Positions 22,951 to 46,881 of a DNA stretch of 64,000 nt are shown here, one piece after another (within the stretch, counting starts at the first letter, position 1; every line of letters begins with the position of its first letter). This DNA comes from Leptospira biflexa (GTDB lineage: Bacteria; Spirochaetota; UBA4802; UB4802), in the NCBI GenBank assembly GCA_020721905.1, contig DYLU01000002.1:11314-75313 (forward strand), read 5' to 3'. Under the pieces are notes generated by a model. That model did no database searches and had not been told where the DNA came from. It saw only the letters and a list, made by a program, of their open reading frames with translations. Made by a program: the position numbers and the translations under genes.

Positions 22951-23541
22951 TTATGATAACCCTTTCAACGCAAACTGGAATATAAATTCAATTAAATCAT
23001 CTATGGTCATCCATTCTTCCGGAGAAAACCACAACCGTGTTCTAACAATCATTGAAGCAATAAGATTCAAAGTAATTTTCTCATCTACTTTTCTGAATAA
23101 TCCCTTTTCAATTCCACGCTTAAGTATAGTGTACCCTATACAATTATATTCATCACGCAGATCCAGAATAACTTTCCTCCTTTCAGGAGAAAGATTCCTG
23201 AGCTCTGTATCAAATAATAACTTTGAAGCTCTTTTTTCCCCCAAAGTAATTTTAACATGAGTTTCTATCAATAATCGTAATTGCTGCAGGGGATCTCCAT
23301 CTTCTTTTTCCAGATACCTGATAGGATTGACGATCTCTTCCATTTCCTCTTTTAAGATTGAGAACAGTATCTCTTCTTTACTTTCAAAAAAATTGTAAAT
23401 ATTGGCAGGCCTGAAACCACATTCATTTGCAATATCCTTCATACTGGTTTCAGCATACCCTTTTTCCCAAAAAAGTACCTGTGATTTTTGCATTATCAGT
23501 GTTCTCTGTTTACCATTTTCTTTTACTACAACATCAGGCAT
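22951..23541 (-). CDS. TetR/AcrR-family transcriptional regulator
   Basis: HTH region FWEKGYAETSMKDIANECGFRPANIYNFFESKEEIL. I set the start to ATG 23541 (AAGGAG 9 nt upstream); the track start at 23580 is a GTG extension. Confidence 0.85.
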   Translation of the reverse strand: MPDVVVKENGKQRTLIMQKSQVLFWEKGYAETSMKDIANECGFRPANIYNFFESKEEILFSILKEEMEEIVNPIRYLEKEDGDPLQQLRLLIETHVKITLGEKRASKLLFDTELRNLSPERRKVILDLRDEYNCIGYTILKRGIEKGLFRKVDEKITLNLIASMIVRTRLWFSPEEWMTIDDLIEFIFQFALKGLS

Positions 23542-23683
23542 CGATATTATCTCCTTAAACTGATAATAAATTGCTTCCACTCTACTTTAATAGCAAAGCA
23601 TTACGAATGAAATCATTGCACCATATCACAATGCTATATTCTTTAAATTTACCACATTAAAATACCATTATCGTAAATACAAG

Positions 23684-23718
23684 AAAAAAAACCTCGTACC
23701 ATATATACGAGGTTTTTT
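23684..23718 (-). terminator. rho-independent terminator (bidirectional shape) ending the minus-strand beta-oxidation operon
   Basis: AAAAAAAA-CCTCGTA-ccatata-TACGAGG-TTTTTT, 34 nt downstream of the crotonase stop. Confidence 0.75.
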
Positions 23719-23751
23719 AAAAAAAACAGGAGGTTCCTTATAACTTTATTT

Positions 23752-24522
23752 TTATTCACCCTTAAATTCAGGTTTTCGCTTTTGTGCAAACGCCATCATG
23801 CCTTCCATACAATCTTTGGTAGGAAATAGTTTTGCCAGTTCTTCCCGTTCCATTTTTAAATGCATTTCAGGAGACATTGAAGGACTGGCTGACAATACCT
23901 TCAAGATTGCTTTGACAGATAGCGGTGGCCTTTGAGCTAATTCTTCTGCAAATTTCAATACTGCACCCATAAAATCCTGTTCTTCAAAAACTTTATTTAC
24001 CAGACCTATTGCAAGTGCTTCTTCTGCCTCAAGTTGTTTTCCAAAAAGCATTAATTCTAATGCCTTTGCTCTTCCAACCAACCGAGGCAAACGTAATGTA
24101 CCGCCATAACCTGGCATAATACCTAAATTTGTCTCAGTTAAACCTATTCGTGCACCCTTTTTCATGAGCCGTATATGACATGCCATTGCCAATTCACAAC
24201 CACCACCTAAGGCATGCCCATTTAATGCAGCTATAACTGGTTTAGGATAATCTTCTATTTTGTTCCATACATCCTGGCCACGTTTCAAAAAATCAACTGC
24301 ACTGAAATCCCCAAATCCCTGTGAAAGATCCGCACCGGCACAGAAAATCTTATCGCCCGAACCCGTTATAACCAGCACACGAATATTTTTATCAATTTCC
24401 AGTGTATCCAGATACTTTCGCATAGTTTCAAAAACATCATGGCTCAGCTGATTAGCTTTAGGTTTATTAATTGTTAAAACACCAATCATCCCTTTTTGTT
24501 CTAATAATACTGCATCTGACAT
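23752..24522 (-). CDS. enoyl-CoA hydratase (crotonase family)
   Basis: FCAGADL and GHALGGGCELAMACH motifs. I set the start to ATG 24522 (MSDAVLLEQK) behind GGAGGTG; the track start overlaps the upstream gene. Confidence 0.88.
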   Translation of the reverse strand: MSDAVLLEQKGMIGVLTINKPKANQLSHDVFETMRKYLDTLEIDKNIRVLVITGSGDKIFCAGADLSQGFGDFSAVDFLKRGQDVWNKIEDYPKPVIAALNGHALGGGCELAMACHIRLMKKGARIGLTETNLGIMPGYGGTLRLPRLVGRAKALELMLFGKQLEAEEALAIGLVNKVFEEQDFMGAVLKFAEELAQRPPLSVKAILKVLSASPSMSPEMHLKMEREELAKLFPTKDCMEGMMAFAQKRKPEFKGE

Positions 24523-24532
24523 ATGACACCTC

Positions 24533-25696
24533 CTATCTCCCAATTGTTTTAAACGAACCATCTATAATTTCAGGTTCTGGTTTTAGAATGTCTAATTTAA
24601 AGCGCTGTGCCAGATAATTAAGGCAATCAGTTAATTGTTGTGGTTGGACTCCTGATGCCAGTGCAAATGGCCCAGCAAATGCATTCATCCCATATTTTAC
24701 ACCATCATCAATATCCTGAACACCAGCAGCAATACCTTCTTTATATACCTTTACTGCTTCATTAACCTGGACTGCCATAAGATGGAGCGGTGTTATTTCT
24801 TCAGTATCCGGCATCTCAGGAATAATAGCTTTACCATCCTTCCATTCATATATGCCTTTCCCGCTCTTCATCCCAAGATAGCCTTTTTCCAGGCATCCAA
24901 GCAAAAATTTTCCTGGTTTATACCGGGGCGATAGTGTCTGTGCATAATATTCCAGTGTATGGCAGAAAACATCCAGCCCAACAAAATCAGCTGTTTCAAA
25001 AGGAGCCATTTTAACACCCATTTTCTTCATTTTTCCATCTATTTGTGCGGGATGGATTTTTCCTTCATCTAAAATAGCACTAAGTAATGCCTGATTAGGT
25101 GCACTGATTCTGTTAACAATAAAACCCGGTCTATCTTTCAAAACTTTTACGGGGAATTTATCAATTTTCTTTGTTAATTCAAACAAAATATTAATCGTAT
25201 TCTCCGATGTCTTTGCGCCATAGATTAACTCAACCAGTTTCATCCTGGTTACAGGGTTGAAATAATGCATTCCAGCAAATCGCTCAGGATTTGTGACAGC
25301 GGTAGCTATTTCAGTAATGCTCATGGTAGAAGTGTTTGTTGCAAGTATTGCATCAGAAGCGCATGCGGATGAAGCTTTTGCAAATACATCCTTCTTCAAT
25401 TGCATATTTTCCGGTACAGCCTCAATGATTACATGAGCATCCGATACTCCTTTTTGTAAATCTGTTGTTATACTTATTTTTCCAAGAACTTCATCAACAG
25501 TTCCCTGCAATTTCCCTTTTGATGCAAGGAAATCTAAACTTTCCTTTACTTTTTTTATCGCATTATCAAGGAATTCCTGTTTAACATCTATCATAGTAAC
25601 CATGAACCCATTTTGAGCGCACACCTGTGCTATGCCATGACCCATTGCCCCCGAACCTATAACGGCAATTTTCTTTACATCATTAATATTTTTCAT
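24533..25696 (-). CDS. 3-hydroxyacyl-CoA dehydrogenase (long form)
   Basis: Rossmann motif IAVIGSGAMGHGIAQV and the NTS...HYFNPV region. I set the start to ATG 25696 (MKNIND) behind GGAGGT. Confidence 0.88.
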   Translation of the reverse strand: MKNINDVKKIAVIGSGAMGHGIAQVCAQNGFMVTMIDVKQEFLDNAIKKVKESLDFLASKGKLQGTVDEVLGKISITTDLQKGVSDAHVIIEAVPENMQLKKDVFAKASSACASDAILATNTSTMSITEIATAVTNPERFAGMHYFNPVTRMKLVELIYGAKTSENTINILFELTKKIDKFPVKVLKDRPGFIVNRISAPNQALLSAILDEGKIHPAQIDGKMKKMGVKMAPFETADFVGLDVFCHTLEYYAQTLSPRYKPGKFLLGCLEKGYLGMKSGKGIYEWKDGKAIIPEMPDTEEITPLHLMAVQVNEAVKVYKEGIAAGVQDIDDGVKYGMNAFAGPFALASGVQPQQLTDCLNYLAQRFKLDILKPEPEIIDGSFKTIGR

Positions 25697-25723
25697 AATT
25701 ACCTCCATTTATAAAAATAATAG

Positions 25724-26920
25724 CTATTTAAGCTCCTTACTTGACATTTCCAGTATGTTGCGAGCAATAATCAAATGCTGTATCTGTCCGGTACCTTCAA
25801 AAATATCCATAATCTTGCTATCCCTCATCCATTTTTCTGCTAAATAGTGAGTTGAATATCCCACCGGCCCAAGCAATTCACTGCATCGCTGGGTTATCAA
25901 GGTTGCATACCTGCCTGCTTTAGCTTTTGCCATTGATGCTTCTAAGTTATTAAACTGGTTATTATCAGCCATCCAGGCAGCACGCCAGGTTAAAAGTCTC
26001 ATAGCTTCAACATTAGCATCCATCAAATACCACTCACGCTCAACTGCAGAAACATTTGATAAATTCTTCTTATAATCAAAAGTATATCCTTTCTTTTCAT
26101 ATTGTTCCCGGGTAAATTCAACAGCTGCACGTGCAATACCTGTTGCCATTGAAGCAACCAATGGCCTGGTATTATCAAATGTTTTCATGACACCTTTGAA
26201 TCCCTCCGTGGACATTTTCACTTCAGGATCCCCCAATATGTTATTATAAGGAATTCTGCAATCGCTGAGCACAAAGGTACCAGTATCAGAACCCCTGATG
26301 CCTAATTTATGCTCTAAATGCTCCAGAGTAAAACCAGGAGTCCCTTTTTCCACAACAAATGATTTGATTCCAGATTTCCCGGCTTTTTTATCAACTGTCG
26401 CCCATACAACCACCACTTCACTTCTGTCTGCGCAGGTAACAAAAATCTTTTCTCCATTGAGTACCCAGTAATCGCCATCACGAGTAGCGGTTGTTGTAAT
26501 AGCTCCTGAATCAGAACCTGCGCCCGGTTCTGTAATTGCCATAGCAGCCCACTTATTACCAAAACGTTCCAGCTGTTCATCATTAGCAACTGCCAAAATG
26601 GCCGCGTTCCCTAAACCAGCATTTGGGAATGACAATAAAAGAGCTGCATCTCCCCAACACATTTCTTCAATGGTCACTACCATCCCCAGGTTTGCTCCGC
26701 GTTTTGGCTTCTTTACTTCACCCGAAGCAGAAGATTCACCCTCTTTCTTTTTCTTAGGGCGGGCCATTACCTTTATCCCTCTGAACATATCAAGTTCCTT
26801 AGGATATTCATGCTCGGCTTCATCATATTTCCTTGAGATTGGACGCAGAACACCTTCTGCCAGTTTATGCATGTTATCCTGTAATGTTTTTATATAATCC
26901 GGTGTTACTAATTGAATCAT
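25724..26920 (-). CDS. acyl-CoA dehydrogenase (canonical subunit)
   Basis: AITEPGAGSDSG and the C-terminal catalytic region DIFEGTGQIQ. I set the start to ATG 26920 (MIQLVTPDY) behind GAGGAGG; the track's 43-aa N-terminal extension overlaps the upstream gene. Confidence 0.88.
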   Translation of the reverse strand: MIQLVTPDYIKTLQDNMHKLAEGVLRPISRKYDEAEHEYPKELDMFRGIKVMARPKKKKEGESSASGEVKKPKRGANLGMVVTIEEMCWGDAALLLSFPNAGLGNAAILAVANDEQLERFGNKWAAMAITEPGAGSDSGAITTTATRDGDYWVLNGEKIFVTCADRSEVVVVWATVDKKAGKSGIKSFVVEKGTPGFTLEHLEHKLGIRGSDTGTFVLSDCRIPYNNILGDPEVKMSTEGFKGVMKTFDNTRPLVASMATGIARAAVEFTREQYEKKGYTFDYKKNLSNVSAVEREWYLMDANVEAMRLLTWRAAWMADNNQFNNLEASMAKAKAGRYATLITQRCSELLGPVGYSTHYLAEKWMRDSKIMDIFEGTGQIQHLIIARNILEMSSKELK

Positions 26921-26939
26921 TGTTGTCCTCCTCACACTA

Positions 26940-28037
26940 TTAAATAATTGCCATGGCTTCACTAATTGCAATACTACGCCCATTACGATAATATCGCTCA
27001 ACAGGATGATCCCTGATATACCCATGGCCACCAAGAATCTGAACCCCATAATCAGTAAGTTTCATAGTCATTTCTCCAGCATAAATCTTTGCAAGGAATG
27101 ACTCACGTTTTGCATCCATGCCTAACTCAATAGCTGATGCAGCCTTCCATGTTAATAGCCTCATTGCATCAACTTCATAAGCCATTTCAGCTATCATAAA
27201 AGCTATGGATTGCCTGCTGGCTATGGGATCACCAAACTGCTGGCGTTCTTTTGCATATTTCCTTGCGTATTCATATGAAGCACGTGAAATGCCTGTTCCA
27301 ATAGCAGCCATTGCAGTTCTTGTTCTCTGGATTAGCCAATGAAATGCTGTTTCATCCCCTAATTTGTTTCTTTCATGAATTGTACAATTTTCAAACGTAA
27401 CTTCAAAAGTTGGCAGTGCCCACCAACCGCAATTTTTTTCTTTTTCTCCAACAGATAGTCCTTTTTCATCTTTATCTACTATAAACAGATGTGGATTGCC
27501 CTCATAATTTGCTATAACTATCATATGCAACGCTTCATCAGCAAGGGGAACAAAGCACTTTTTCCCATTTATAACATACGAGTTAGCCTTCTTTTCAGCT
27601 TTTGTTTCACAATTCCATACATCAAAACCCACACTAAGTTCGTTAATTGCCAGTGATGCCGGAACAAATGAATCACTGGAAAATTCCGGAAGATACTTTT
27701 CCTTTTGCTCTTTTGAGCCTAAATGAACCAGGGGGAGTACAAAGAGAGCAGGCAGCATTGCATAGACTGCAAAGCTCATATCTCCAAAAGCCAGTTCCTC
27801 AAGAACTAAAGAATGGAGAATTGGTGAACTCCCCATACCATATCCACCATATTCTTCAGGGATCATTGACTGAATTATACCTAGTTCCCAGAATTTTTGG
27901 ACTGCCTGTTTATCCAATTGCCTTTTTTCATCCCATTGGTGAATAGAATCTATCACTGTAGCCTGAACAAGCTGTCGGACAGTATCCTGCATCATCTGCT
28001 GTTCTTCAGATAATGCAAAACTTATTTCTTCTACCAT
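26940..28037 (-). CDS. acyl-CoA dehydrogenase-like protein with degenerate signatures
   Basis: The overall ACAD pattern is present (GG.GYIRDHPVERYYRN), but the TEPxAGSD box reads INELSVGFD. The C-terminus is ISEAMAII* instead of YEGTxxIQ and is truncated. Confidence 0.75.
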   Translation of the reverse strand: MVEEISFALSEEQQMMQDTVRQLVQATVIDSIHQWDEKRQLDKQAVQKFWELGIIQSMIPEEYGGYGMGSSPILHSLVLEELAFGDMSFAVYAMLPALFVLPLVHLGSKEQKEKYLPEFSSDSFVPASLAINELSVGFDVWNCETKAEKKANSYVINGKKCFVPLADEALHMIVIANYEGNPHLFIVDKDEKGLSVGEKEKNCGWWALPTFEVTFENCTIHERNKLGDETAFHWLIQRTRTAMAAIGTGISRASYEYARKYAKERQQFGDPIASRQSIAFMIAEMAYEVDAMRLLTWKAASAIELGMDAKRESFLAKIYAGEMTMKLTDYGVQILGGHGYIRDHPVERYYRNGRSIAISEAMAII

Positions 28038-28054
28038 ATAATAACCTCCTTAAT

Positions 28055-28086
28055 AAAATAAGTACTGACATGTCAGTACTTATTTT
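28055..28086. promoter_or_regulatory. perfect 32-bp palindrome, candidate TetR operator and/or terminator hairpin
   Basis: AAAATAAGTACTGACATGTCAGTACTTATTTT lies between the TetR stop (28105) and the SD/ATG of the ACAD operon (28037). Its core ACTGACATGTCAGT recurs at 28838-28859. Confidence 0.55.
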
Positions 28087-28104
28087 ATTATTGAAATAAG
28101 TCAA

Positions 28105-28719
28105 CTATTTTTTATTAAAAATACCATGTGCAATAATGTTAGAGGCCTTATCAGATATTGCTTCTAAATCGCCAATTAGCATGTTGTCATCCATTGTTAT
28201 AGTCAAATAATAATGGGCTAACCGGAAGACTCCTCCAGCAATTAGATTGGCCATAAAATTTAGATCCATCTGTTTATCAATATTATTGAATTTCACTGCA
28301 ATATTAAGATCAGCAATAATCATATTAATTAATTTGTTTTCAAAATGCTGAATTTTTTGCTCAAAATGATCTGGCAAGCCTAAACCGGCACGTAAAATTA
28401 TATTTGCCCGGTCTCTATCTTCAAAGAAAAATCTGAATGCTTCATACAACCTTTTTTTAAGATACATATATGGAGAAATTGTTTCTAAATCTTCTTTAAC
28501 CGATAATTCATTGATATAGTTTTCCCATTCAATTAAAAATCTTTCCAGTAACGATATAAAAAGATGTTCCTTATTGGAAAAATATTGATAAACAGTTCCC
28601 CGACCAATTTTTGCCGATTCAATAATATCTGAAATTTGTGTTGCATAATAGCCCTTTCCCGAAAATAACCTTTTTGCATGAAGCAATATTTTATCTCTTG
28701 TATCATCTGCTCTGGTCAT
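28105..28719 (-). CDS. TetR-family transcriptional regulator
   Basis: HTH region FSGKGYYATQISDIIESAKIGRGTVYQYFSNKEHLF, flanked on both sides by the same palindrome. Confidence 0.88.
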   Translation of the reverse strand: MTRADDTRDKILLHAKRLFSGKGYYATQISDIIESAKIGRGTVYQYFSNKEHLFISLLERFLIEWENYINELSVKEDLETISPYMYLKKRLYEAFRFFFEDRDRANIILRAGLGLPDHFEQKIQHFENKLINMIIADLNIAVKFNNIDKQMDLNFMANLIAGGVFRLAHYYLTITMDDNMLIGDLEAISDKASNIIAHGIFNKK

Positions 28720-28837
28720 TATGCCTCCTTTGTTTTTTTCAACTCAATGACAATGAGTAGCAAAAAACAATTACATTCTTAAAAAGAAATTTAAAAAAAT
28801 TATTTTTTTTTAATAAATTATTCTTGACAAATCAAAA

Positions 28838-28859
28838 TAATACTGACATGTCAGTATTA
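28838..28859. promoter_or_regulatory. 22-bp palindrome, candidate TetR operator in the divergent promoter region
   Basis: TAATACTGACATGTCAGTATTA lies 9 nt downstream of a TTGACA hexamer (28824-28829), between TetR (minus) and the SCP2 gene (plus). Confidence 0.55.
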
Positions 28860-28921
28860 CAAGCAAATTTTTTATATTTGCAAAATATTTTACATAATAT
28901 TATTTTTTAAGGAGGATCAAC

Positions 28922-29479
28922 ATGGTTATTGCACCAAATACTTCAATTGATCAATTTCTCACAGAAATTATGCCAAAAGCAGCAACGGAAATGCTTCAAA
29001 ATTCCAATGCACCCAAAGAACTTGGTGGCACTGAAATCACCATGGTTGTTGAAGTTAATGGTAAATCCTATGGATTCAAAGTTAAAGATGGCAAAAATAT
29101 TGAAACATGTGGTGATATCGCAAAACCTATGCTGAGATTAAAAATATCCGAAGCTGATTTAAAGAAAATGATTGAAACCAATAATCTCGATATGCTGTTA
29201 GGCATGCAGAAGGATCTGACAAGAGCCCGATATAATGCTCTATCTTCTTTGAAAGGTAGTTTTATTGCCAAATTAAAAAATGACGATGGTTCTGAATTTA
29301 CCATTGAAGCAATACTTAACGGTGCAACATCACCACAATCAATTTTCCGTATGACAACAAAAGACTCAGCTGCTTTGATGAAAAAGGAAACAAATCCTGT
29401 TAATCTTTTCATGTCAGGTGCAATGAAAATCGAAGGTGATATGAGTTTTGCAATGGCAACCCAACCCCTATTCACTTGA
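28922..29479 (+). CDS. SCP2 (sterol-carrier-protein-2-like) lipid-binding domain protein
   Basis: The C-terminus NPVNLFMSGAMKIEGDMSFAMATQPLF matches the SCP2 pattern. AAGGAGG SD. Confidence 0.6.
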   Translation: MVIAPNTSIDQFLTEIMPKAATEMLQNSNAPKELGGTEITMVVEVNGKSYGFKVKDGKNIETCGDIAKPMLRLKISEADLKKMIETNNLDMLLGMQKDLTRARYNALSSLKGSFIAKLKNDDGSEFTIEAILNGATSPQSIFRMTTKDSAALMKKETNPVNLFMSGAMKIEGDMSFAMATQPLFT

Positions 29480-29554: not shown

Positions 29555-31432
29555 ATGGAAACTTTACCCTGGTACAAAGAATATAAAGTTTTAGGTATAC
29601 CAAAAACATTTAAGCCTTATCCTGATAAACCTGTATATGATATTCTTGAAATAGCTGCAAAAAAATACAAAAATAATGGCCTTTTACAAAAGGATTATTT
29701 TATATCTTATCCGCAACTTCTTGAGTATGTAAACAGACTGGCTTCACGCCTACAGTCTTTTGGACTGATCAAAAATGATATTATTGCAACGATTTTACCA
29801 ACTTCTACAGAATTTATAATTGCTGATTACGCAATTTCAAAAGCAGGGCTCATCCATCTGCCATGCAGTTCACTTGAACCTGCTGAAGCTCTTGAACACA
29901 AATTTAAAGAAGGTAAGCCTAAAGCTATAATTTGTACCAGCAACGATATTAAAATTGTCACCCACTTAATAAAAAAGACCAGTGTCAGAGCTATCATCAT
30001 TGCAGACACACGTACCAGCAACTTTGTTCCAACTATCGATACCAATAAAATTAAAATACCAAGCTCCTCAATTTATGAGTTATACTCATTAATCCAGAAT
30101 TCTTCAGGAAACATTAATCCAGTTCCTATTAATGTAGAAACTGATATCGAAACATTAATTTTTACAGGTGGTACCACAGGTATTCCAAAAGGCTGTATGC
30201 TCACACATAGAAATATATATGCTAACTGTATACAGAATCTCCATGCATTAGGTGCCGGAGGATTGACATTCAAGGGGGCAATATCGGTTATATTGGGATT
30301 ACCATTTTTTCATACCTATGGGCATTGCCTTATGCATACAATGATGCTTTTTGGATTCAATATCATCATTATCAACGATCCACGTGATACTAAATCAATG
30401 GTTGAAAATATAAAGAAGCACTATCCGGTTATGCAGATAGGTGTACCAGCTCAATTCATGAAATTAGCTAAAGAAGATCTCAGCGGTATAGGCATAATTG
30501 GTCTTTCAGGATCGGCTCCTCTATCTGAATCGACACAGGAAGAATTTGAAAAACGTTCAAATAGCGGCATAATGGAAGGTTATGGTCTTTCAGAGATGTC
30601 CCCAGTGACACACCTTAATCCTTCAGTGATATACCGTATTTTAGGAGGGCGTTTTGGTGTCCGATTAGTATCTCTCTTATCATCAATTCCCGGAAATAGT
30701 TACTTAACCAATCAGCTCTTTCGTTTGATAGGGACAAGAAACTTTGGCTGGATTTTTACTAAAATTATTTCATATCGCATGAAAAAAACAAGTCAAAAGC
30801 CCGGAAAGAAATCTGTAGAAAAACGAAGAACAATTGGTGTTCCATTCCCCGACACTGAAGTACGTTTTCTTGATTTTGAAACTGGTAACATTCTGACAAT
30901 TGATGATATGCTGGCTGGAAAAAGAGCAGAGATGCTTTTAAAGGGACCACAGCGTATGTTAGGATACTGGCCAAAACCTGATAGTGGCTGTGATGCTGAA
31001 GGTTTCATTCATACCGGTGACATAGTACAGATAGACTCTAATGGTTATTTTTACATTGTTGATCGTTCCAAGGATATGATTAATGTCTCAGGTTTCAAAG
31101 TATATTCAAAAGAAATTGATGACATCGCTGGTGAACATCCACATGTTGAAGCAGCTGCAACTGTTGGAATACCTAATCCAGAAAAAGAAGGTAGCGAAGT
31201 AGTTGTTCTTTTTGTTCAGTTGTATCCACAATACAAAAACAAAACAAAAGAACAAGATATATTAAAATACCTTCAATCAAAAGTTGCAAAATATGCAGTA
31301 CCCAAATTTATACAACTGGTAGATGAACTTCCCCGAACAGCAGTTGAAAAAGTTGATAAAAAAATATTACGGCAAATGGCTATTGATCATTTTCTACTAT
31401 CAAAAAAGAAAGCAAAAATCAAAACAAAATAA
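29555..31432 (+). CDS. long-chain fatty acid-CoA ligase (AMP-forming) with internal insertion
   Basis: Motifs TGGTTGIPKG, EGYGLSE and TGD..., with a C-terminal ...PRTAVEKVDKK. An extra segment of about 70 aa (aa 357-425) lies between the GYGLSE motif and IGVPFP. Confidence 0.88.
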   Translation: METLPWYKEYKVLGIPKTFKPYPDKPVYDILEIAAKKYKNNGLLQKDYFISYPQLLEYVNRLASRLQSFGLIKNDIIATILPTSTEFIIADYAISKAGLIHLPCSSLEPAEALEHKFKEGKPKAIICTSNDIKIVTHLIKKTSVRAIIIADTRTSNFVPTIDTNKIKIPSSSIYELYSLIQNSSGNINPVPINVETDIETLIFTGGTTGIPKGCMLTHRNIYANCIQNLHALGAGGLTFKGAISVILGLPFFHTYGHCLMHTMMLFGFNIIIINDPRDTKSMVENIKKHYPVMQIGVPAQFMKLAKEDLSGIGIIGLSGSAPLSESTQEEFEKRSNSGIMEGYGLSEMSPVTHLNPSVIYRILGGRFGVRLVSLLSSIPGNSYLTNQLFRLIGTRNFGWIFTKIISYRMKKTSQKPGKKSVEKRRTIGVPFPDTEVRFLDFETGNILTIDDMLAGKRAEMLLKGPQRMLGYWPKPDSGCDAEGFIHTGDIVQIDSNGYFYIVDRSKDMINVSGFKVYSKEIDDIAGEHPHVEAAATVGIPNPEKEGSEVVVLFVQLYPQYKNKTKEQDILKYLQSKVAKYAVPKFIQLVDELPRTAVEKVDKKILRQMAIDHFLLSKKKAKIKTK

Positions 31433-31457: not shown

Positions 31458-32636
31458 ATGAGAGAATGTGTATTTATTGATGGTGTGAGAACACCCAACG
31501 GAAGAGCTCATCGTGAAAAAGGCTGGTTCAGAAACTTAAGGCCTGATGAGCTTTTAACACCAGTGTACAATGCACTATTTGAGCGAAACAGTAAAGTTGC
31601 CCCTGGTATGATTGATGCTGTTTTTGTTGGTTGTGCTAATCCATCAGGCATGCAGAACGATATCGGCAGGTTAGCATGGTTAGCATCTGGACTACCAGAT
31701 TCAGTCCCTACCAATACTTTGACCAATCAATGTCCATCCGGCATGTCTGCCACCATGCATGCCGCACGAGCAATTATGACCGGTGAAGCAGATATCATCA
31801 TAGCTGCTGGCATAGAGGATATGGAAAAAGTACCAATGGGTGCCAATATGGATTTCCCTCCACGCTTGTTGAAATACTATAATGGAGCGGATCTTTTAAT
31901 GGGAGCTACTGCCGAAAAAGTAGCTGAGAAATGGAATATATCTCGAGATGACATGGAAAATATGGCATACTGGTCAAATAAAAAGGCATGGGAAGCAACA
32001 CAAGCCGGCAAATTCAAAAAGGAGATAGTTCCAATAATGGGTCTTGATGATAATGGAAATGAATTCTTAGTAGATAGGGATCAATGGATTCGCGAAAAGG
32101 TAGATAGGGAAAAAATGAAAACCATGATGTCACCATTCAAGCCCAATGGCGTTGTAACAGCAGCAACATCATCACCGCTGACACAGGGTGCTTCAGCACT
32201 ACTTCTCATGAGTAGAGAAAAAGCTGATAAATTGGGACTCCCGTATACATATAAATACTCATATGGAGTATTAGCCGGATGTGATCCTACTGTAATGGGA
32301 ATTGGACCAATTCCTGCTATAAAGAAACTTGTTGCACGGACTGGTTTGAATCTAGACGAAGTGGGAGCAATTGAACTGAATGAAGCTTTTGCAAGTCAGT
32401 CATTAGCATGTATACGTGAACTTAAACTAGATAATGACAATGCTCCATTTAAGCGTGTGAATGTTTGGGGCGGTGCTATTGCTTTAGGTCATCCGTTAGG
32501 TGAATCAGGTGCACGTATTATTGTAACGTTGCTTAATGTGTTACAAACTGAATTCCCGAATGCGAAATATGGACTTGCTTCGCTATGTGGTGCTTTTGGC
32601 AATGCAGGAGCATTACTGGTTGAAAAAGTTAATTAA
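31458..32636 (+). CDS. acetyl-CoA C-acyltransferase (3-ketoacyl-CoA thiolase)
   Basis: Nucleophile region NQCPSGMSA, NEAFASQ, GHPLGESGAR, and C-terminal CGAFGNAGA. I set the start to ATG 31458 (MRECVFIDGVRTP); the track start is an overlap artefact. Confidence 0.88.
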   Translation: MRECVFIDGVRTPNGRAHREKGWFRNLRPDELLTPVYNALFERNSKVAPGMIDAVFVGCANPSGMQNDIGRLAWLASGLPDSVPTNTLTNQCPSGMSATMHAARAIMTGEADIIIAAGIEDMEKVPMGANMDFPPRLLKYYNGADLLMGATAEKVAEKWNISRDDMENMAYWSNKKAWEATQAGKFKKEIVPIMGLDDNGNEFLVDRDQWIREKVDREKMKTMMSPFKPNGVVTAATSSPLTQGASALLLMSREKADKLGLPYTYKYSYGVLAGCDPTVMGIGPIPAIKKLVARTGLNLDEVGAIELNEAFASQSLACIRELKLDNDNAPFKRVNVWGGAIALGHPLGESGARIIVTLLNVLQTEFPNAKYGLASLCGAFGNAGALLVEKVN

Positions 32637-32777: not shown

Positions 32778-33416
32778 GTGAAACGATTTTTAACTATCTT
32801 TTTAACAATTATTTTTGCAGGTATCTCAATCCTTGTTTTTTCACAACAATCAAACTGGAAATTAGTACATGAAAGTAAAGAAGATCAAGCTTTCTTACAA
32901 ATTTTCACTCGTGATATCCCCGGTTCGCCTTATAAAGAATTTAAGGGTGTAAGCTTTTCTGATATTCCTTTTGATATTGCTCTCAAAGTTATTCAGGACT
33001 ACAATAATTATCACAAATGGTATGGCATGTGTAAAGCATTGTATCCAATAAATGTGCGCAACCCAAAAGATCTTGATATGTATTTTATCCTTGACCTTCC
33101 TGTTGTTACAGATCGCGATGTTATTGTTAAAGTTGAATGCGGCTGGGATGAGAAAAAAGGGACCGCCTGGGTAAACATGACATCAGTAAATAATAGTACA
33201 TATAAAAATGACAGCGGTTTAGTGCGTATGACATCTTTAAAAGGAAGATGGGATATAATCAAAAAAGATGATAACCATGTAGAAGTTATTTATCAGGTAC
33301 ATGCTGAATTAGGAGGATCTCTGCCAGCCTGGGTGGTCAATATTGCAGCAAAAGATCAACCGTTAAAGACTTTAAAAGGTGTTTATAAATACAGTAAAAA
33401 GATACGCGATAAGTAA
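32778..33416 (+). CDS. secreted START/SRPBCC-like lipid-binding protein
   Basis: Signal peptide MKRFLTIFLTIIFAGISILVFS, with a length and pattern (YHKWYGMC...VTDRDVIV...W) compatible with a START fold. GTG start behind AAGGAGG. Confidence 0.45.
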   Translation: MKRFLTIFLTIIFAGISILVFSQQSNWKLVHESKEDQAFLQIFTRDIPGSPYKEFKGVSFSDIPFDIALKVIQDYNNYHKWYGMCKALYPINVRNPKDLDMYFILDLPVVTDRDVIVKVECGWDEKKGTAWVNMTSVNNSTYKNDSGLVRMTSLKGRWDIIKKDDNHVEVIYQVHAELGGSLPAWVVNIAAKDQPLKTLKGVYKYSKKIRDK

Positions 33417-46710: not shown

Positions 46711-46881
46711 TTACTGATAGCTATCTATCATAGTTCCCAGGCCTTCAACACTGACATGTGAAATTACATTTGCTTCTACCAGTTTCTCGCTTAATCCGGT
46801 ACGTACTGCTGCCAGTCCCTTAAGCAAATTGTTGAGCTGTTCTATACTCTGCTCTATTGCTGTTAGGTGTTGTGCCATCAT
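46711..46881 (-). CDS. small hypothetical protein (56 aa), possibly YjfB-like
   Basis: ATG 46881 behind AAGGAGGG; MMAQHLTAIEQSIEQLNNLLKGL...VEGLGTMIDSYQ. The track start at 46902 is a TTG extension. The family assignment is weak. Confidence 0.45.
   Translation of the reverse strand: MMAQHLTAIEQSIEQLNNLLKGLAAVRTGLSEKLVEANVISHVSVEGLGTMIDSYQ

Follow-up and report, generated by a model that had tools for sequence, protein, structure and literature searches.

A conserved palindrome on both sides of a TetR-family gene probably serves as the operator of a beta-oxidation regulon in uncultured Spirochaetota

Why does the same palindrome stand on both sides of a gene for a TetR-family regulator that separates two operons for beta-oxidation? 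The question is raised by a stretch of 64,000 nucleotides, here called the window, from a genome assembly assigned to Leptospira biflexa (Spirochaetota; assembly GCA_020721905.1, contig DYLU01000002.1). The regulator gene, tetR-A, encodes a protein of 204 amino acids (aa) and occupies positions 28105-28719 of the minus strand. Divergent from it is an operon for an SCP2-domain protein, an acyl-CoA ligase, a thiolase and a START-domain protein. Downstream of it, on its own strand, lie two genes for acyl-CoA dehydrogenases (ACAD), followed by those for 3-hydroxyacyl-CoA dehydrogenase (HBD) and enoyl-CoA hydratase (ECH). The 14-bp sequence ACTGACATGTCAGT, contained in both palindromes, is probably the operator of the adjacent TetR-A repressor, and as such it would join tetR-A and both beta-oxidation operons into one regulon.

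The divergent spacer between tetR-A and the SCP2 gene is designated IG1, and the spacer from the tetR-A stop codon to the first ACAD gene is designated IG2. The palindromes in them are O1 and O2, respectively. The original prediction described O2 as a perfect 32-bp palindrome, AAAATAAGTACTGACATGTCAGTACTTATTTT, and O1 as a 22-bp palindrome, TAATACTGACATGTCAGTATTA, with a core of 14 bp common to the two. Both sequences are present, at positions 28055-28086 and 28838-28859. The description of the IG1 palindrome stands as given, whereas perfect symmetry in IG2 extends further than described, over 40 bp (28051-28090). The exact block common to the two copies in the window is 16 bp long, TACTGACATGTCAGTA, and is found at 28063-28078 in O2 and at 28841-28856 in O1; as a palindrome it is assigned to neither strand. 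The proposed 14-mer is nevertheless the exact part that is invariant throughout the family, and the flanking T...A that complete the 16-mer are specific to the clade of the window.

Two exact copies of such a sequence are not expected by chance. The G+C content of the window is approximately 37%, and exact 16-mer copies are expected at about 2.5e-5 per window according to our own estimate from composition. When up to three mismatches are allowed, the window has three matches against an expectation of 0.32, a count that was reached in none of 100 shuffles. No further copy with two or fewer mismatches exists in the 64-kb window. Weaker copies at 46750 and 59797/59798, with three mismatches each, are at chance level and were discarded. 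The statement that there is no third copy is therefore true within the window, whereas the genomes of close relatives hold further copies.

The exact 16-mer was searched for in one genome per species, 596 Gb of sequence, and was found in only 81 stretches. Six of these are pairs of sites flanking a tetR gene, 764-894 bp apart, in assemblies of Spirochaetota; the pairs include L026 and L033, which have about 91% nucleotide identity to the window. For 22 of the 81 stretches (27%), an open reading frame (ORF) with a TetR-type helix-turn-helix (HTH) is located at most 350 bp from the site. The original prediction had raised the prospect of a dispersed repeat unrelated to the regulator. Some of the remaining hits (L032, L082 and L088) are indeed terminator stems or coding sequence in unrelated genomes with no TetR gene nearby, as would be anticipated for a chance or dispersed sequence without a regulatory role. 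However, the window holds two copies in 64 kb, both at tetR-A, the position of the motif is kept across deep divergence, and the genomes of relatives contain few copies each. Nearly all of these few have as a neighbour a lipid-metabolism gene, tetR or the gene of a methyl-accepting chemotaxis protein (MCP), which differs from the distribution of repeats resembling repetitive extragenic palindromic (REP) sequences or miniature inverted-repeat transposable elements (MITE). The repeat explanation was tested and rejected, and its probability is negligible.

The position of the motif was compared in eight contigs encoding TetR-A homologs (L001-L008). Seven of them keep the full layout, in which the START-thiolase-ligase-SCP2 operon diverges from tetR, which is followed by ACAD-ACAD-HBD-ECH, while the identity of the regulator to TetR-A decreases from 76% to 45%. 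All seven loci (L001-L005, L007 and L008) have the 14-mer in IG1 as well as in IG2, with no more than one mismatch, although the DNA around it has diverged beyond easy alignment. Both positions are also occupied in L021, L026, L033, L042, L043, L052, L055 and L086. At the O2 position the 14-mer is invariant in 14 genome-derived orthologous loci and in metagenome loci, and O1 is kept in all orthologs. The clade with approximately 45% identity (L004 and L005) has two tandem copies in IG1, 23 bp apart from centre to centre, and one copy downstream of tetR. The eighth contig, L006 from Desulfatibacillum (39% identity), has only the SCP2-ligase-thiolase operon next to tetR; it contains ACTGAGGTGTCAGT in the tetR upstream region and ACTGACGTGTCAGT upstream of SCP2. 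That every syntenic locus examined, with TetR identities from 95% to about 45%, has the palindrome in both spacers supports the claim of the original prediction that it is an operator linking the two operons.

A search of metagenome contigs with the TetR-A alignment provided 80 additional loci with 30-95% identity. Both sites are present in all 12 metagenome loci with at least 72% TetR identity, and at least one site with no more than one mismatch lies between -450 and +160 of tetR in 52 of the 80 loci. Two further arrangements were observed among the relatives. The CALOBT01 assembly (Spirochaetota) has two paralogous tetR/SCP2/ACAD loci (L004 and L086), and operators are present at each of them. 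In a Leptospirales bin, from which the tetR-A locus L021 also comes, a 50-bp perfect palindrome centred on the 16-mer lies between two genes on the same strand (L036:7443-7492), which is a long-armed copy resembling that in IG2.

The protein expected to read the motif has the domain structure of a TetR-family regulator. TetR-A has an N-terminal TetR HTH domain (PF00440, residues 11-56, E = 7.9e-15). Its AlphaFold2 model, calculated with 21 homologs, has a predicted local distance difference test (pLDDT) score of 84.9 and contains 10 helices arranged in the all-alpha two-domain fold of the family. A fold search of the PDB with the model resulted in 467 matches at E <= 0.001, and all 50 of those listed belong to the TetR family. 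The best among the listed matches is FadR (YsiA) of Bacillus subtilis, both free and bound to stearoyl-CoA (3whc), followed by FadR of B. halodurans and a TetR protein of Syntrophomonas wolfei, with template modelling (TM)-scores of 0.73-0.86 overall, depending on normalisation. Close relatives of TetR-A are few: 25 proteins at E <= 1e-10 in a set of 5.8 billion proteins, and eight clusters at E <= 1e-30 among 50%-identity cluster representatives. Those of the 25 proteins that are named come from metagenome-assembled genomes of Spirochaetota and Desulfatibacillum. TetR-A belongs to a FadR-like but undescribed subfamily of TetR proteins. The SCP2 gene is the most constant neighbour of this subfamily across phyla.

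The recognition helix of TetR-A reads GRGTVYQYF, and the pattern (G/A/S)RGT(V/F)Y(Q/L/A)(Y/H)F is found in 17 of the 22 regulators encoded close to a 16-mer in the 596-Gb scan. Some of the regulators that share the helix have an overall identity of just 21-31% and originate from Actinomycetota, Planctomycetota, Bacteroidia and unclassified bins; their genes often adjoin those for SCP2 and ligase proteins. The co-occurrence of the motif with these distant TetR genes in other phyla is the second line of support for the proposed operator.

The pairing of helix and motif also bears on the identity of the binding protein, because the window encodes another candidate. TetR-B (22951-23580, minus strand) follows the ACAD operon and is syntenic in the clade of the window. 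It has the YsiA-like C-terminal domains PF17932 and PF08359 and scores better than TetR-A against the FadR equivalog family (66.8 bits), so that a different regulator such as TetR-B might bind the palindrome while TetR-A binds something else. However, the sites remain in loci without TetR-B (L004, L005, L006, L021 and L086), and in other phyla they adjoin genes for regulators with a helix of the TetR-A type, whereas that of TetR-B differs (FRPANIYNFF). The TetR-B gene has its own promoter-like region after the terminator of the ACAD operon, with no copy of the motif nearby. The box recognised by Bacillus FadR, GATGAATGAATACTCATTCAT, is unrelated to the palindrome (PMC5397183). Since the helix is shared across phyla and the sites persist where TetR-B is missing, the palindrome is assigned to TetR-A, and binding by TetR-B in its place is very unlikely.

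The exact 16-mer was also observed in Actinomycetota beside TetR genes with unrelated recognition helices (L023:6621, L064:3929 and L066:5323), and the palindrome may therefore serve more than one TetR lineage. In Streptomyces, the 16-mer lies inside similar 24-bp palindromes (L048:2184 and L073:6547) with an ORF for a weaker TetR HTH nearby.

Relatives of the window's organism have additional sites. In assemblies of four of them, the exact 16-mer precedes an MCP gene with the sensor domains 7TMR-DISMED2 and 7TMR-DISM (L080:5738-5753, L059:4152-4167, L049:4590-4605 and L030:4711-4726), and is positioned 6-21 nt downstream of a TTGACA hexamer. L080 is a contig of the 91%-identical relative. Further sites are located upstream of a small ECH gene (L035 and L012), a gene for a lipoprotein alpha/beta-hydrolase (L037) and, in a Desulfobacterales bin (L034), an HBD gene. 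Because the genes behind these sites form a coherent regulon, the sites were counted in favour of the operator function. Their arrangement suggests that in the relatives a chemoreceptor is co-regulated with beta-oxidation. Neither an ortholog of the MCP nor DNA similar to L080 was found in the window, and such a site, if the genome has one, would be located beyond the 64 kb.

If the palindrome is an operator, it should be positioned at promoters, and nearly every target has a TTGAC(A/T) hexamer 6-25 nt upstream of it. In IG1, the TTGACA that the original prediction noticed near the 22-bp palindrome is found at 28824-28829 (plus strand), 11 nt before the 16-mer, and is a putative -35 element of the SCP2 operon; the TTGTCA block at this hexamer is invariant in alignments of the clade. 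On the opposite strand, tetR-A has a candidate promoter (28834-28862, minus strand) consisting of TTGTAA at 28862-28857, a 17-nt spacer formed by the 16-mer and one T, and TATTTT at 28839-28834. The sequence TTG(T/A/C)AA directly 5' of the IG1 palindrome is kept in the clade, and L003 reads TTGAAA-17-TATAAT. In IG2, the -35-like hexamer TTGACT (28099-28104, minus strand) abuts the tetR-A stop codon (28105-28107) and is located 20 nt upstream of O2. Its TTGAC is invariant in the ortholog alignment. The metagenome family members provide 28 unique downstream sites; 21 of them are preceded by TTGAC(A/T) at a distance of 18-25 nt, and for 16 the hexamer either abuts the stop codon (TAG followed by TTGACT) or contains it (T-TGA-CA). 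The presence of a -35-like hexamer at the tetR stop indicates that the ACAD operon most likely has a promoter of its own. In several distant members a good -10 element is present 16-17 nt away (TTGACA-17-TAAAAG and TTGACA-17-TAGACT are examples), which places the operator over -10/+1. The hexamers were also considered as extra half-sites for TetR because of their likeness to CTGACA, but their distance from the palindrome ranges between 6 and 25 nt and their sequence is an exact match to the -35 consensus, so this was rejected as the principal explanation.

An operator that overlaps the core promoter at every target has the geometry of repression by occlusion. TetR-A might instead bind the palindrome and activate transcription, as do the TetR-family proteins FasR and DhaS, to which it has weak NCBIfam similarity; the poor -10 elements are typical of activator-dependent promoters. 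However, the -35-like hexamer is located upstream of the operator at a variable spacing of 6-25 nt, so that the operator covers the expected -10/+1; this arrangement suits occlusion and not recruitment, and the closest folds are those of repressors. Activation is thus extremely unlikely.

The following sequence of events is proposed. O1 would overlap the core promoters of both tetR-A and the SCP2-ligase-thiolase-START operon, and O2, 20 nt after TTGACT, would cover -10/+1 of the separate promoter of the ACAD-ACAD-HBD-ECH operon. Without an inducer, TetR-A dimers on both sites would shut off tetR-A and the two beta-oxidation operons. An acyl-CoA or related lipid ligand, produced by the operon's own ligase, may then free the repressor from DNA.

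The second copy of the palindrome has properties beyond those of the first. The 40-bp perfect palindrome around O2, read on the minus strand, can form an RNA hairpin of 18 bp that ends just before the Shine-Dalgarno sequence of the first ACAD gene and has a folding energy of -26.8 kcal/mol (z = -5.3). Median hairpin energies are approximately -18 kcal/mol for IG2 and -8 kcal/mol for IG1. The IG2 palindrome is 30-40 bp long in the window, L026, L033, L001, L002, L007, L043, L093 and L098. The sequence of the outer arms differs among orthologs, while their complementarity stays. For 11 outer pairs in 11 unique sequences of the clade, 81% are paired in comparison with 61.9% in shuffles, and there are 22 double-change cells in comparison with 7.6; none of 500 shuffles reached either value. 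Slid controls gave 31-50% pairing, and a set of 14 sequences agrees with these results. The same test on IG1 showed no excess (62.8% versus 63.3%). The symmetry beyond the operator is therefore kept specifically at IG2.

These features favour an alternative, according to which the palindrome at 28051-28090 is primarily an RNA terminator or attenuator that ends the tetR-A transcript, and its likeness to the upstream copy is secondary. The original prediction had suggested termination or attenuation as an additional function of this copy. The strength of the hairpin, the covariation of its arms, its higher stability than that of the IG1 hairpins and the U-rich 3' arm in the window (CUUAUUUUAUUA) all point in this direction. 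However, the 14-bp core is invariant in sequence and the same as in IG1 and at all other targets, whereas an RNA stem needs only pairing. A consensus scan of positions 27900-29000 found no intrinsic terminators; the O2 stem is AU-rich rather than G+C-rich and its U-rich 3' arm is interrupted. The true terminator of the operon, which follows ECH, differs from the O2 element in its GC-rich stem and its run of eight T. In L003, L008 and throughout the 45%-identity clade, the arms are extended little or not at all and the tails are not U-rich; in general, U-rich tails are not kept among orthologs. In addition, a conserved -35-like hexamer is positioned between the tetR stop codon and the palindrome. 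A mainly terminating function is unlikely, whereas the covariation in the clade leaves room for some role of the hairpin in addition to that of the operator.

Two other origins of the extended symmetry were considered. Contacts with protein were rejected as the cause because the symmetry of the arms is kept and their sequence is not. Correction of quasipalindromes by template switching is a possible non-selective cause, but on its own it leaves the lack of excess pairing in IG1 unexplained. If transcription of the ACAD genes starts inside the palindrome, the full hairpin would form only in transcripts that read through from tetR-A, next to the ACAD Shine-Dalgarno sequence. It is conceivable, although speculative, that the hairpin insulates the enzymes from the basal tetR-A transcription needed to keep the repressor present. 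A wider proposal joins three parts: O2 as an operator combined with a hairpin of 18-20 bp that insulates against read-through, ACTGACATGTCAGT and the helix RGT(V/F)Y(Q/L)YF as an ancient pair common to several phyla, and lipid catabolism of Spirochaetota coupled to a dedicated 7TMR-DISM chemoreceptor. We offer this combination tentatively, and it is rather doubtful that all of its parts hold together.

Several observations weigh against the assignment of the palindrome as the TetR-A operator. Among the 80 metagenome loci, 28 that belong to distant members of the family have no site near tetR. In the clade of the window, neither a consensus scan nor inspection by eye identified a convincing -10 element 16-18 nt from TTGAC(A/T) for the SCP2 and ACAD promoters; the promoter positions given above are therefore provisional and the promoter model is incomplete. 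The covarying outer arms of O2 are superfluous for a pure operator. The sequence identity of TetR-A to FadR is only about 21%, its score against the NCBIfam FadR equivalog NF053878 is 43 bits at a cut-off of 200, which excludes it from that family, and a Pfam search found no match for its C-terminal domain. Because of these three results the ligand of TetR-A is a guess, and release by acyl-CoA is proposed solely from the fold likeness to the complex of FadR with stearoyl-CoA (3whc). The model also leaves unexplained two loci, L146 and L158, in which no ORF of at least 120 aa lies downstream of the site on the same strand; the ORFs listed in the remaining 1.3 kb of L158 do not exceed 91 aa. A non-coding RNA may be the target of the site in these loci. 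Both belong to a subgroup with 35-37% identity, in which a three-gene operon ends with tetR and the operator follows the tetR stop codon, with the TGA contained in TTGACA (L146:3600-3830 and L158:3620-4979).

The genes around the palindromes were identified from Pfam domains, which match the gene calls of the original prediction for the 204-aa TetR protein, the divergent SCP2 gene and the ACAD-ACAD-HBD-ECH operon. On the minus strand, the first gene downstream of O2 is ACAD1 (26940-28037; Pfam Acyl-CoA_dh_N/M/1 and synteny), followed by ACAD2 (25724-26920), HBD (24533-25708; 3HCDH_N and 3HCDH) and, as the last gene of the operon, ECH (23752-24561, with a probable start at 24522; ECH_1). On the plus strand, the divergent operon begins with the SCP2 gene (28922-29479; PF02036), which is kept beside tetR-A homologs including those in other phyla, and continues with the AMP-dependent acyl-CoA ligase (29555-31432; AMP-binding) and the thiolase (31458-32636). 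The gene for the START-domain lipid-binding protein (32778-33416; PF01852) is syntenic with the operon. The orthologs of ACAD2, thiolase and ECH are 396-398, 392 and 256 aa long, respectively, so that the listed starts of the three ORFs are probably too early and internal methionine codons are the likely starts. For ACAD2, listed from 27049, the start is Met44 at 26920, and for the thiolase, listed from 31323, it is 31458. With the internal starts the apparent overlaps between genes vanish. The two adjacent ACADs were considered as heteromeric sterol side-chain dehydrogenases, but both best match ordinary short- or medium-chain ACADs and the idea was dropped. SCP2 and START are two lipid-transfer domains of eukaryotic style encoded in a bacterial beta-oxidation operon.

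The canonical terminator after ECH is located at 23684-23718 of the minus strand (AAAAAACCTCGTA...TACGAGGTTTTTTTT), and it is kept with compensatory changes in the stem in five orthologs. Just upstream of it, at 23727-23736 (minus strand), is the block GAACCTCCTG, which is kept in all five. The only match in an Rfam search of 23400-29100 was a PyrR-binding site over 23681-23776, which is below threshold (32.8 bits at a gathering score of 54). The tetR-A leader at 28730-28770 contains a 20-nt inverted repeat, 85% complementary, directly upstream of the tetR-A Shine-Dalgarno sequence.

The type of circuit described here is ordinary and well known, and nothing that is known of TetR and FadR-type control is overturned. 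The regulator family and the motif are undescribed: literature searches gave no match to the 14-mer and nothing relevant for Leptospira, TetR and beta-oxidation in combination. The analysis predicts a concrete operator, together with its regulon, for a still uncharacterised subfamily of TetR proteins. The subfamily occurs in uncultured Spirochaetota and, accompanied by the same 14-bp core, in Desulfobacterota, Actinomycetota, Planctomycetota and Bacteroidia. Annotation of lipid-catabolic regulons in metagenome-assembled genomes can make direct use of the motif. The points that are added to the known picture are modest, namely the cross-phylum pair of operator and helix, the chemoreceptor in the predicted regulon of relatives, and the compact layout. 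If the chemoreceptor of these spirochaetes is indeed co-regulated with beta-oxidation, it would suggest chemotaxis toward lipids. The layout, in which the -35 element of a putative promoter is fused to the stop codon of the regulator gene and the predicted operator doubles as a maintained hairpin, is a small feature of design.

The closest known system is that of Bacillus FadR, which binds its box as a dimer of dimers and is released from DNA by long-chain acyl-CoA (PMC5397183). FadR belongs to the TetR family and is the best structural match of TetR-A (3whb/3whc of B. subtilis and 5gp9/5gpc of B. halodurans); its top chains reach TM-scores of 0.74-0.86. FadR controls beta-oxidation operons through palindromic operators, one of which is at its own gene, as is predicted for TetR-A, and the predicted TetR-A targets, which are the genes for two ACADs, HBD, ECH, acyl-CoA ligase and thiolase, correspond to a regulon of the FadR type. 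However, the TetR-A operator is unrelated in sequence to the FadR box, and TetR-A is outside the FadR equivalog, since it misses both the NF053878 cut-off and PF08359. In addition, tetR-A sits between its two predicted target operons, and its stop codon is abutted by the -35-like element of the putative promoter that follows.

The TetR-type FadR of Sulfolobus acidocaldarius regulates fatty-acid metabolism in an organism of a distant lineage (PMC6449355). It and FadR of Thermus thermophilus differ from TetR-A in lineage and operator, and the comparison with the S. acidocaldarius protein was made only through generic TetR hits. The S. acidocaldarius regulator is encoded inside the lipid and beta-oxidation cluster that it controls, and both proteins are released from DNA by acyl-CoA.

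The mycobacterial lipid and sterol regulators KstR, KstR2, Mce3R, FasR and BkaR resemble TetR-A as TetR proteins that control lipid catabolism from short palindromic operators at several operons. They are among the weaker sequence and fold matches to TetR-A, below FadR. Their operators, such as TnnAACnnGTTnnA of KstR, differ from ACTGACATGTCAGT, and the ACADs of the window are of the ordinary short- or medium-chain type, unlike the heteromeric enzymes that act on sterol side chains.

Classical TetR with tetO, and QacR, have in common with the locus described here a palindromic operator in a divergent intergenic region and the combination of autoregulation with control of a neighbouring operon. 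In contrast, the locus of TetR-A has a second identical operator at a putative separate promoter directly 3' of the regulator gene, and its predicted targets are catabolic enzymes instead of an efflux pump.

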